A DNA stretch of 64,000 nucleotides, from the NCBI RefSeq assembly GCF_003018255.1, contig NZ_CP027440.1. One strand, written 5' to 3'. The stretch comes from Escherichia coli (GTDB lineage Bacteria > Pseudomonadota > Gammaproteobacteria > Enterobacterales > Enterobacteriaceae). Below are positions 15,470 to 60,929 of the stretch, piece by piece (positions within the stretch are counted from its first letter, which is position 1; each line of letters starts with the position of its first letter). The position numbers were made by a program, and so were the translations under genes. The notes under the pieces are model-generated. The model saw only the letters and a list, made by a program, of their open reading frames with translations, did no database searches and was not told where the DNA came from.

Positions 15470-15955
15470 TTATTCAGCAGTTGCAGGCATTTTACCTTTT
15501 GCCGCTGGACGTTCTGTCAGACGCTTCTCAAAATTAGCATTAAATTGCTTTTTCTGTTCCGGCGTCAGGATGTTGTAAATCTTGTTCTGGGTTTCCATGT
15601 GCGCCAGCATGTTAGCTTTGCGCTGTTCTTCCATTTTTGCGATCTGCGCTTCAGCTTTTGCTTTATCGAAGGTATCGCTGGCAATGATGTCATGCATTGC
15701 GCGGCGTTCTTCCAGCGGCGGACGTTTCATCTGGTCACGCTGGCCTTTCATGATTTCGCGGATCTGCTGTTTCTGCGCGTCGGTCAGGTTCAGGTCTTTG
15801 AACATCATGTCCTGATGCGGACCGAACTTGCCTTTGTGGTGCATCATCGGCTTCGCGTCAGCCGGTGCTGAGGTAGTGGTGTCTGCGGCATGGGCCAGGT
15901 TAGCCGCGCCAAGAGCCAGGGTAGAGGCAACAAACAGTGCAGTTAATTTACGCAT
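15470..15955 (-). CDS. spy: periplasmic ATP-independent chaperone Spy
   Basis: 161-aa ORF with signal peptide and Spy/CpxP-family sequence. Confidence 0.95.
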   Translation of the reverse strand: MRKLTALFVASTLALGAANLAHAADTTTSAPADAKPMMHHKGKFGPHQDMMFKDLNLTDAQKQQIREIMKGQRDQMKRPPLEERRAMHDIIASDTFDKAKAEAQIAKMEEQRKANMLAHMETQNKIYNILTPEQKKQFNANFEKRLTERPAAKGKMPATAE

Positions 15956-22400: not shown

Positions 22401-22756
22401 GCCAGTGATAAAAGTGCATAAATCGCGGAGGCTAACTGGAAATCAAGGAGTTATAACCAAACATATGCATTTAAAGTGCATATAAAGTGAATACGTTTGC
22501 GATGTGGGTGAATAAAAAGAATAAAAAACGCAATGTTATGCAGAAGTGAAATATAATTCTGAAATTGTGATCATTGACGAAATTTACTGGAAATTACTGC
22601 GCCATTCTGACGCAACGCGCACCAAAAGCGGGCATTTTTTGCGCCATCGTTGACATCATTAACAACCATCGATCAAATCACTTAACAACAGGCGGTAAGC
22701 AAAGCGAAATTCTGCTACCATCCACGCACTCTTTATCTGAATAAATGGCAGCGACT

Positions 22757-42073: not shown

Positions 42074-42114
42074 AATTTTTCCGCTCCTGTGGAATAAGTT
42101 GCTGAATCGTTTTT

Positions 42115-59107: not shown

Positions 59108-59356
59108 TTAACTTTTAATCTTTCTGTAGATAAACAGCACGACAATCGCGCCAATAACGGCAACCACGAAGCTGCCAAAATTGAAGCCATCGACTTTACC
59201 AAAGCCAAACAGCGTGCTGATCCATCCGCCGACTACGGCACCGACTATCCCCAGCAGGATAGTCATAAAGAATCCACCACCATCTTTACCTGGCATGATC
59301 CACTTCGCCAGAATACCGGCAATAAGCCCAAAAATAATCCATGACAGAATGCCCAT
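59108..59356 (-). CDS. yeaQ: GlsB/YeaQ/YmgE-family stress membrane protein
   Basis: 82-aa Gly-rich two-TM ORF. Confidence 0.85.
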   Translation of the reverse strand: MGILSWIIFGLIAGILAKWIMPGKDGGGFFMTILLGIVGAVVGGWISTLFGFGKVDGFNFGSFVVAVIGAIVVLFIYRKIKS

Positions 59357-59503
59357 TGTTTCCTCACTTATCTGTTTTGCATTAGCGGGTTAGTCGCTGA
59401 TAAAAAGCATAGCACAACATCGTGAGGGCAAGATTTGTGACGAGCATCACGGAGGATTTTTTTGCGATGGCGCAGAAATTGCGCCATCAACGATCAGTGA
59501 TAA

Positions 59504-59686
59504 TTACCAACCACAAACATCATGTTCGTTTTCCGTGTCATAAGAACGCACGGTATTCACCAGATCTTTTATCACTTCAGCCGCCACTTCTGGCACCAGC
59601 AAAGTCATCGGCGTCTCTGTTTCATAATCGACAGAAACGCCATTGCTGTTATTGGTGACGGTCACGGTATACGTTGCTTTGCCCAT
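59504..59686 (-). CDS. yoaG: DUF1869 protein YoaG
   Basis: 60-aa ORF immediately downstream of yeaR (4-bp gap). Confidence 0.8.
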   Translation of the reverse strand: MGKATYTVTVTNNSNGVSVDYETETPMTLLVPEVAAEVIKDLVNTVRSYDTENEHDVCGW

Positions 59687-59689
59687 GAT

Positions 59690-60049
59690 TCATTTCCCGT
59701 TATGAATGACTTTCCGTTGTTGCGCACCTTCCATCAGGACTTCAGGAGCAACGAAGAAGTCAATGTTGAAATAAGTGTCGTCAGTCATGGCTTCAATGTT
59801 GTGCCACTTTTCTGGAGGGAACACAGCAAACTGCCCCGCTTCGATAAGGATCACTTGATCAGGCTCTGTACTGTGTTCATCAGCGTAGCCGAGATATTTG
59901 ACCGCCCCATGCATAACGGAAAGGCGTGGGTAAACCCCCGGGCGCGTTCCTTTATCAAGATGACGTTCGAATATTCCGGCAGGCGCAGTTTGTTTATTCC
60001 AGAAAGGCGTTGAGCGCGTATGAATATAATTCTGTGGGATTTGCAGCAT
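59690..60049 (-). CDS. yeaR: DUF1971 protein YeaR
   Basis: 119-aa ORF. Confidence 0.8.
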   Translation of the reverse strand: MLQIPQNYIHTRSTPFWNKQTAPAGIFERHLDKGTRPGVYPRLSVMHGAVKYLGYADEHSTEPDQVILIEAGQFAVFPPEKWHNIEAMTDDTYFNIDFFVAPEVLMEGAQQRKVIHNGK

Positions 60050-60221
60050 CCTTTTCCCTCCTTCGGTGAATGCGCTGAAAACGGTTTATTTCAGCCGTTT
60101 CAGGGTACGCCTGATAATTTGCATTTTAAATACCATTTATTGGTTACTATTTAGCACCGTATCAGAGAAGAATCAGGGAGGATTACAGGTGGGAAGCCCG
60201 CGACAACGCGGGCTGAATGCA

Positions 60222-60929
<708 letters not shown>

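Follow-up and report, generated by a model that had tools for sequence, protein, structure and literature searches.

The spacer between leuE and yeaR in an Escherichia coli genome (contig NZ_CP027440.1) raises the question of which of its sequence motifs control the yeaR-yoaG operon, and in what arrangement. An original prediction, made from the letters alone, had named two: a partial dyad resembling an NsrR-type operator and the palindrome AAACGG-N10-CCGTTT, which together were put forward as a candidate nitric oxide (NO)- and nitrate-responsive control region for two DUF proteins. We analyzed these motifs within the window, by which we mean the whole 64,000-nucleotide stretch of DNA that contains them, and in orthologous loci of related bacteria. 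We conclude, with a probability of about 0.93, that the region is the sigma-70 promoter of yeaR-yoaG, activated by NarL and repressed by NsrR, and that the AAACGG palindrome is no operator.

An NO- and nitrate-responsive control region upstream of yeaR (DUF1971) and yoaG (DUF1869) is already documented (PMC5320621, PMC10853779), and the operon is described as being under NarL and NsrR control (PMC4959519). The regulatory assignment is accordingly known, and the first reading was correct but ordinary. In the presence of nitrate, yeaR is upregulated 160-fold and yoaG 168-fold in CFT073, where both rank near the top of the induced genes and are assigned to NsrR/NO regulation. Furthermore, yoaG is an NO-responsive gene in plant-associated Salmonella, and the yeaR promoter is active in the mouse gut. 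The promoter is a textbook-level model of Fnr-independent NarL activation and is recognised as belonging to the NsrR regulon, and a reading of the sequence alone had here recovered a real operator. Beyond that reading, we describe the overlap of the NarL and NsrR sites, the conservation of this overlap, and a possible hairpin in the leader RNA that has apparently gone unexamined to date.

The leuE-yeaR Spacer Corresponds to the K-12 Promoter Region

Several complete E. coli genomes match the 901 bases around the site at 100% identity, and the gene order is that of the K-12 map (dgcP, yoaK, yoaJ, yeaQ, yoaG, yeaR, leuE, dmlR, dmlA). The K-12 yeaR-yoaG promoter is reportedly the subject of the studies by Lin, Bledsoe and Stewart (2007) and Squire et al. 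(2009). Because yoaG, yeaR, and leuE all lie on the minus strand, the motifs in the spacer are to be read on that strand (Table 1). Between 60092 and 60148 (-53 to +4) the window shows no difference from K-12 MG1655, such that the NarL 7-2-7 site, the NsrR operator, the -35 and -10 hexamers, and the +1 position are all identical at what is the same locus. The window differs from the K-12 promoter by strain-level SNPs only, the nearest being located upstream at 60149 (-54), 60159 (-64), and 60166 (-71) and in the leader at 60091 (+5), where the window carries A and K-12 and other Escherichia carry G.

At the downstream end of the spacer, the purine-rich block at the yeaR Shine-Dalgarno sequence is kept across the orthologue alignment. 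Downstream of yoaG, the window contains two further reading frames that the yeaR-yoaG operon may include (PMC4959519): one of 40 aa on the minus strand at 59368-59490, and yeaQ at 59108-59356. At the upstream end, a GC-rich hairpin follows the leuE stop codon. A terminator scan did not call this hairpin (60195-60214) because no T-run follows it. It is probably the leuE terminator, which would shield yeaR from read-through and delimit the yeaR control region on its upstream side.

Table 1. Coordinates of genes, control elements, and inverted repeats at the yeaR-yoaG locus of the window.
Feature	Coordinates	Strand	Position or description	Basis
yoaG (DUF1869)	59504..59686	-	60 aa	ORF and RefSeq annotation of identical E. 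coli DNA
yeaR (DUF1971)	59690..60049	-	119 aa	ORF and RefSeq annotation of identical E. coli DNA
leuE-yeaR spacer	60050-60221		172 bp; both motifs inside	Gene coordinates
Shine-Dalgarno AAGGAGG	60057..60063	-	7 nt 5' of the yeaR ATG	Sequence reading
Candidate 5'-terminal mRNA hairpin GCUGAAA-UAAACCGU-UUUCAGC	60074..60095	-	+1 to +22	Repeat search and folding
AAACGG-N10-CCGTTT palindrome	60079..60100		-6 to +17, across the start site
Transcription start (+1, G)	60095	-	+1	Derived from the published NarL centre at -43.5
-10 hexamer TACCCT	60102..60107	-	-12 to -7	Position arithmetic from the NarL centre
NsrR operator, 11-1-11 inverted repeat AAATGGTATTT-A-AAATGCAAATT	60116..60138	-	-43 to -21, centre -32
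Putative -35 hexamer TTTAAA	60125..60130	-	Inside the NsrR operator	Inferred; 17-bp spacer to the -10 hexamer
NarL 7-2-7 activator site TAACCAA-TA-AATGGTA	60131..60146	-	Centre -43.5	PMC10853779
GC-rich hairpin AGCCCGCG-TTGT-CGCGGGCT	60195..60214	-	3' of the leuE stop; 8-bp perfect arms	Repeat search
leuE	60222-60860	-	Stop codon 60222-60224	ORF; RefSeq name from identical E. coli DNA

The Dyad Is the Published NsrR Operator of yeaR

The dyad was found as AATTTGCATTTTAAATACCATTT at 60116-60138, exactly where the original prediction had placed it. Its reverse complement, AAATGGTATTTAAAATGCAAATT, is an exact copy of the yeaR entry among the 11-1-11 NsrR sites of CFT073 (PMC5320621 Table 4). By this identity the dyad is the already characterised NsrR site of the yeaR-yoaG promoter, and its resemblance to an NsrR-type operator had thus been recognised correctly. 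Mutation of the operator abolishes NsrR-dependent repression, according to the account that PMC5320621 gives of Lin et al. 2007.

A PWM scan for NsrR had been proposed as a check on the prediction, and it bears the assignment out. We constructed a symmetrised PWM from the 16 distinct ChIP-seq-positive sites in PMC5320621 Table 4, with yeaR left out, and found that the yeaR operator scores 21.46 bits and is the top match in the 64 kb, where the runner-up reaches 13.84. This score lies in the upper part of the range of the ChIP-verified training sites (13.2-30.6 bits) and corresponds to a per-position P of 2.3e-8 under an iid model with the composition of the window; 2 of 200 Markov-1 simulated windows attained it. 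Half-site scores are 11.3 and 10.4 bits, both above the median of 9.8 for ChIP-positive half-sites. The match, earlier described as imperfect, is thus strong and not weak: by PWM rank it stands among the better ChIP-verified sites.

The internal dyad symmetry of the operator is 8/11. We considered whether this imperfection arises from the distal half doubling as a NarL heptamer, an explanation that is ruled out because the two halves are alike in score. Like the NsrR operators of ytfE, hcp, hmp, and ygbA, the yeaR operator has a 23-bp architecture and a ATGCATTT-N-AAATGCAT-like core; unlike them, it overlaps a NarL half-site and the -35 hexamer, and it was negative by ChIP-seq in CFT073.

The other PWM matches in the window (at 15825, 9218, and 22462; 11.9-13.8 bits) are at the level of the random maximum (13.7 +/- 2.3) and are not regarded as sites. 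One of these is a near-perfect palindrome, CATATGCATTTAAAGTGCATATA, at 22462-22484 in the astC-xthA intergenic region, whose 11.9 bits do not rise above a random maximum and do not make it an NsrR site. It is similar to an ARG box, and the astCADBE promoter is ArgR-regulated.

NarL Site and Core Promoter

The proposal that the region responds to nitrate was sound, but neither of the two motifs listed for it is the nitrate element, and the NarL 7-2-7 site at 60131-60146 had been overlooked. This site (TAACCAATAAATGGTA) equals the yeaR sequence in the published description, which also reports its -43.5 position, its contact with the alpha-CTD, activation in vitro and in vivo, and a 3.2 A cryo-EM structure of the NarL activation complex at the yeaR promoter (PMC10853779). 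A single 7-2-7 site is enough for NarL activation of yeaR (PMC7419079). A scan with the NarL consensus, likewise proposed at the outset, does not discriminate the true site: compared with two TACYYMT heptamers it matches at 10/14 positions, a level reached or exceeded by 207 16-mers in the window. As the consensus scan is unable to single it out, identification of the NarL site rests on the literature.

The placement of the transcription start at 60095, which corresponds to K-12 1879994 (minus strand), is consistent with the scaffold designated '-59 to +1' and with the G-initiated de novo transcript reported for this promoter (PMC10853779). With this start, the NsrR operator covers the -35 hexamer together with the promoter-proximal NarL heptamer. 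Its computed centre agrees with the -32 position at which the study of Lin, Bledsoe and Stewart (2007) reportedly places the operator. The NsrR operator and the NarL site overlap by 8 bp (60131-60138), which comprise the whole promoter-proximal heptamer and one further base. The sequence GCGTAMCCT in the -10 region is common to Escherichia, Citrobacter, and Salmonella. A scan of 59950-60300 for consensus sigma-70 promoters called none; this miss is uninformative because the promoter is activator-dependent and has a TTTAAA/TACCCT core.

A Fis footprint described by Squire et al. (2009) is said to overlap the -43.5 site. The title of that study, as cited in PMC10853779 and PMC7419079, states that Fis antagonises NarL. 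A close parallel to this architecture is the ogt promoter, which like yeaR is activated by NarL independently of Fnr from a 7-2-7 site abutting the -35 hexamer and is reportedly subject to Fis antagonism; activation of ogt takes a tandem pair of NarL sites (-44.5 and -77.5), that of yeaR a single one (PMC10853779, PMC7419079). Also unlike yeaR, ogt has no NsrR operator reported in the literature surveyed.

The Overlapping Arrangement Is Conserved

To compare the control region between species, we took one genome per species and obtained 26 usable yeaR loci of approximately 3.3 kb each, from Escherichia (5), Citrobacter (17), Salmonella enterica subsp. arizonae and diarizonae, a 'Raoultella' MAG, and Silvania. 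In 26/26 loci the best NsrR PWM match in the whole 3.3 kb falls 84-95 nt upstream of the yeaR ATG, with scores of 12.5-23.8 bits. A NarL 7-2-7 site matching the consensus at 10-11/14 positions lies eight bases upstream of the operator in every locus except that of Silvania. The distal NarL heptamer, the NsrR operator, and GCGTAMCCT form one conserved block, beyond which the sequence further upstream is unrelated between genera. As judged from these alignments, the overlapping NsrR/NarL arrangement is kept across the orthologues, with Silvania retaining the NsrR match without a 10-11/14 NarL site.

The NarL site TAACCAATAAATGGTA is invariant in most of the orthologues. A Citrobacter sedlakii/amalonaticus-like clade has TGCCCCTTTTGGTGTA instead at the same position (approximately 1401-1416 in 3 loci), which is still a 7-2-7 site and matches at 11/14 positions. 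In this clade the overlapping NsrR half-site is altered too, and the operator still scores about 21 bits. The clade thus illustrates how two overlapping sites can change in step. We also noted an apparent yeaR fragment, whose product is 93% identical to E. coli YeaR, in an assembly of Alkalicoccobacillus porphyridii (Bacillaceae), on a 234-bp contig with a coverage of 0.8; this fragment is almost certainly enterobacterial contamination of the assembly.

The orthologues bear directly on a competing account, in which the NsrR motif would be a mere AT-rich partial dyad and the response of yeaR to NO would be indirect. Such an account could invoke the NsrR ChIP-seq study in CFT073, in which yeaR had no peak, a result that its authors considered a probable false negative (PMC5320621), and it could point to the AT-rich character of promoter DNA, which lifts the PWM background approximately 10-fold. 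Even against a 64% A+T background, however, the per-position P of the operator is still 2.3e-7, corresponding to about 3e-5 expected matches per intergenic region. Moreover, the top PWM match occupies the same position in every orthologue, including Silvania with its unrelated flanks, and PMC5320621 and PMC4959519 count yeaR among the known targets of NsrR on the strength of mutational analysis. We consider an indirect NO response very improbable, and we retain the reading in which NsrR represses yeaR-yoaG directly from this operator.

A Model for Combined Control by Nitrate and NO

The geometry of the promoter suggests how its two regulators may be combined. NarX/NarQ sense nitrate or nitrite and give rise to phospho-NarL, a dimer of which binds to 60131-60146 and recruits RNA polymerase via its alpha C-terminal domain, Fnr not being required (PMC10853779). 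Repression by NsrR and its relief by NO are likewise reported (PMC5320621, PMC4959519). Binding of this [Fe-S] repressor to 60116-60138 would cover the -35 hexamer and the proximal NarL heptamer, so that NsrR should exclude polymerase and activator alike, and because the operator and the NarL site share 8 bp, the repressor and the activator are expected to compete for the same DNA. On this basis we infer that bound NsrR would sterically exclude NarL. NO damages the NsrR cluster, whereupon NsrR leaves and the promoter is open. Full expression would then need both nitrate or nitrite and NO, a logical AND that the geometry of the sites suggests.

Inverted Repeats around the Transcription Start

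The second motif of the original prediction, AAACGG-N10-CCGTTT, is present in the spacer, one base away from where it had been placed: it occupies 60079-60100, whereas 60080-60101 reads AACGG...CCGTTTC. In the 64-kb window, perfect inverted repeats with 6-bp arms at N10 spacing number 20, as compared to about 15.6 expected, and 494 are found at spacers of 0-20; about 0.8 such palindrome is expected per 172-bp intergenic region. The AAACGG palindrome is no commoner than chance, and six-base arms are uninformative. The spacer as a whole contains 8 six-base inverted matches, a number that 0.3% of simulated regions attain; these 8 consist of overlapping registers of the probable leuE terminator hairpin and of mutually exclusive repeats near the start site. 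The hexamer CTGAAA occurs there twice in direct orientation, 9 bp apart (60103..60098 and 60094..60089), and once inverted (60080..60075), and it is this combination of a direct repeat with one inverted copy that generates three mutually exclusive inverted repeats. The copies read CTGAAAC at -8..-2 and CTGAAAT at +2..+8, with the inverted copy at +16..+21, a pattern specific to Escherichia.

Of 6 distinct Escherichia sequences, only those of the window and K-12 carry the palindrome intact; the other 4 have lost it through uncompensated substitution of the two downstream-arm C's (60083, 60084) or of the C at 60097. Citrobacter and Salmonella have unrelated sequence at this position, and the motif is absent. 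As a motif of the promoter region, the palindrome therefore fails on frequency and on conservation, and it extends across the start site rather than lying in the upstream promoter. It also cannot form an RNA hairpin, since the upstream arm lies almost wholly before the start site and only one of its bases is transcribed.

A different inverted repeat begins at the start site itself. With +1 taken from the literature, its arms (60095..60089 with 60080..60074) are wholly transcribed and start at +1, and GCUGRAA-N8-UUUCAGC is the only inverted repeat at the start site that is conserved in Escherichia. The first 30 nt are predicted to fold into a 7-bp stem with an 8-nt loop (MFE -9.2 kcal/mol; 96% of the ensemble; z = -4.2 versus dinucleotide shuffles). 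In all Escherichia sequences the stem is 100% paired; its single substitution, A/G at 60091, exchanges an A-U for a G.U pair. The C. freundii group, C. R56/Awk4, C. amalonaticus/sedlakii, and Salmonella have hairpins of different sequence located 0-4 nt from a predicted +1, whose position is assumed in these lineages. The hairpins of the five lineages have z-scores of -2.0 to -4.3 versus dinucleotide shuffles, with modest z-scores for the whole leaders. As the left arm ACAGCG is common to the non-Escherichia lineages, their hairpins are not independent of one another. An Rfam search of 59400-60400 with E up to 10 returned only two meaningless matches.

Three explanations of these repeats have to be weighed. 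If the AAACGG palindrome were the operator of a further dimeric factor, for example of the LacI/Cra type, its extent from -6 to +17 would be the classic position for a repressor acting as a roadblock over the start site. Its half-sites also resemble TGAAAC, the half-site of Cra. Against such an operator stand the chance-level frequency of the palindrome, the uncompensated loss of its arm C's within Escherichia, and its absence from Citrobacter and Salmonella; furthermore, PMC10853779, PMC7419079, and PMC4959519 name no further regulator. No match to the Cra consensus, RSTGAAWCSNTHHW, with at most one mismatch lies within 60060-60110, and the middle CTGAAA copy is TGGAAT in most Escherichia, so that we rejected a Cra/LacI-type operator in the leader. 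An additional operator at the start site appears highly unlikely. The remaining two explanations concern whether the +1 hairpin is itself a product of selection. In the neutral account, both the palindrome and the +1 hairpin would be by-products of the CTGAAA repeats with no function in DNA or RNA. This would fit the chance frequency of palindromes with 6-bp arms and the three overlapping alternative pairings that arise from one repeated hexamer. It would equally fit the Escherichia stem, which has one substitution and no double-sided compensatory change, and the genomic background, in which 2.1% of 30-nt windows fold from nt 1 at -8.7 kcal/mol or below; for the weaker hairpins, those of C. 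amalonaticus and Salmonella, the background is in the 8-22% range. What speaks against neutrality is that 3 of 8 loop columns vary within Escherichia versus 1 of 14 stem columns, with pairing preserved, and that five divergent lineages keep a hairpin 0-4 nt from the predicted +1. We regard the neutral account as a real possibility, somewhat short of probable. The alternative is a 5'-terminal stem-loop of the yeaR-yoaG mRNA that is under selection and is kept with different sequences in Citrobacter and Salmonella; we put it forward tentatively, at a little below even odds.

If the selected stem-loop is real, it would be expected to shield the mRNA from 5'-end-dependent decay (RppH/RNase E), by analogy with ompA. 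Emory, Bouvet and Belasco (1992) reportedly found that 5'-terminal stem-loops of the ompA type stabilise E. coli mRNAs. Like these, the yeaR candidate starts at or within a few nucleotides of the transcript 5' end, and by this likeness it may belong to the ompA type. A 5' stem-loop would add a post-transcriptional layer to a promoter that has so far been studied at initiation only, and could make the NO/nitrate response sharper or longer. It could also make nitrate/NO biosensors built on PyeaR behave differently with the leader than without it.

Elsewhere in the window, the Cra consensus is frequent. There are 25 matches to RSTGAAWCSNTHHW with at most one mismatch, all outside 60060-60110, a number above that in all 100 shuffles (mean 14), and the sole exact match is GCTGAATCGTTTTT at 42101-42114.
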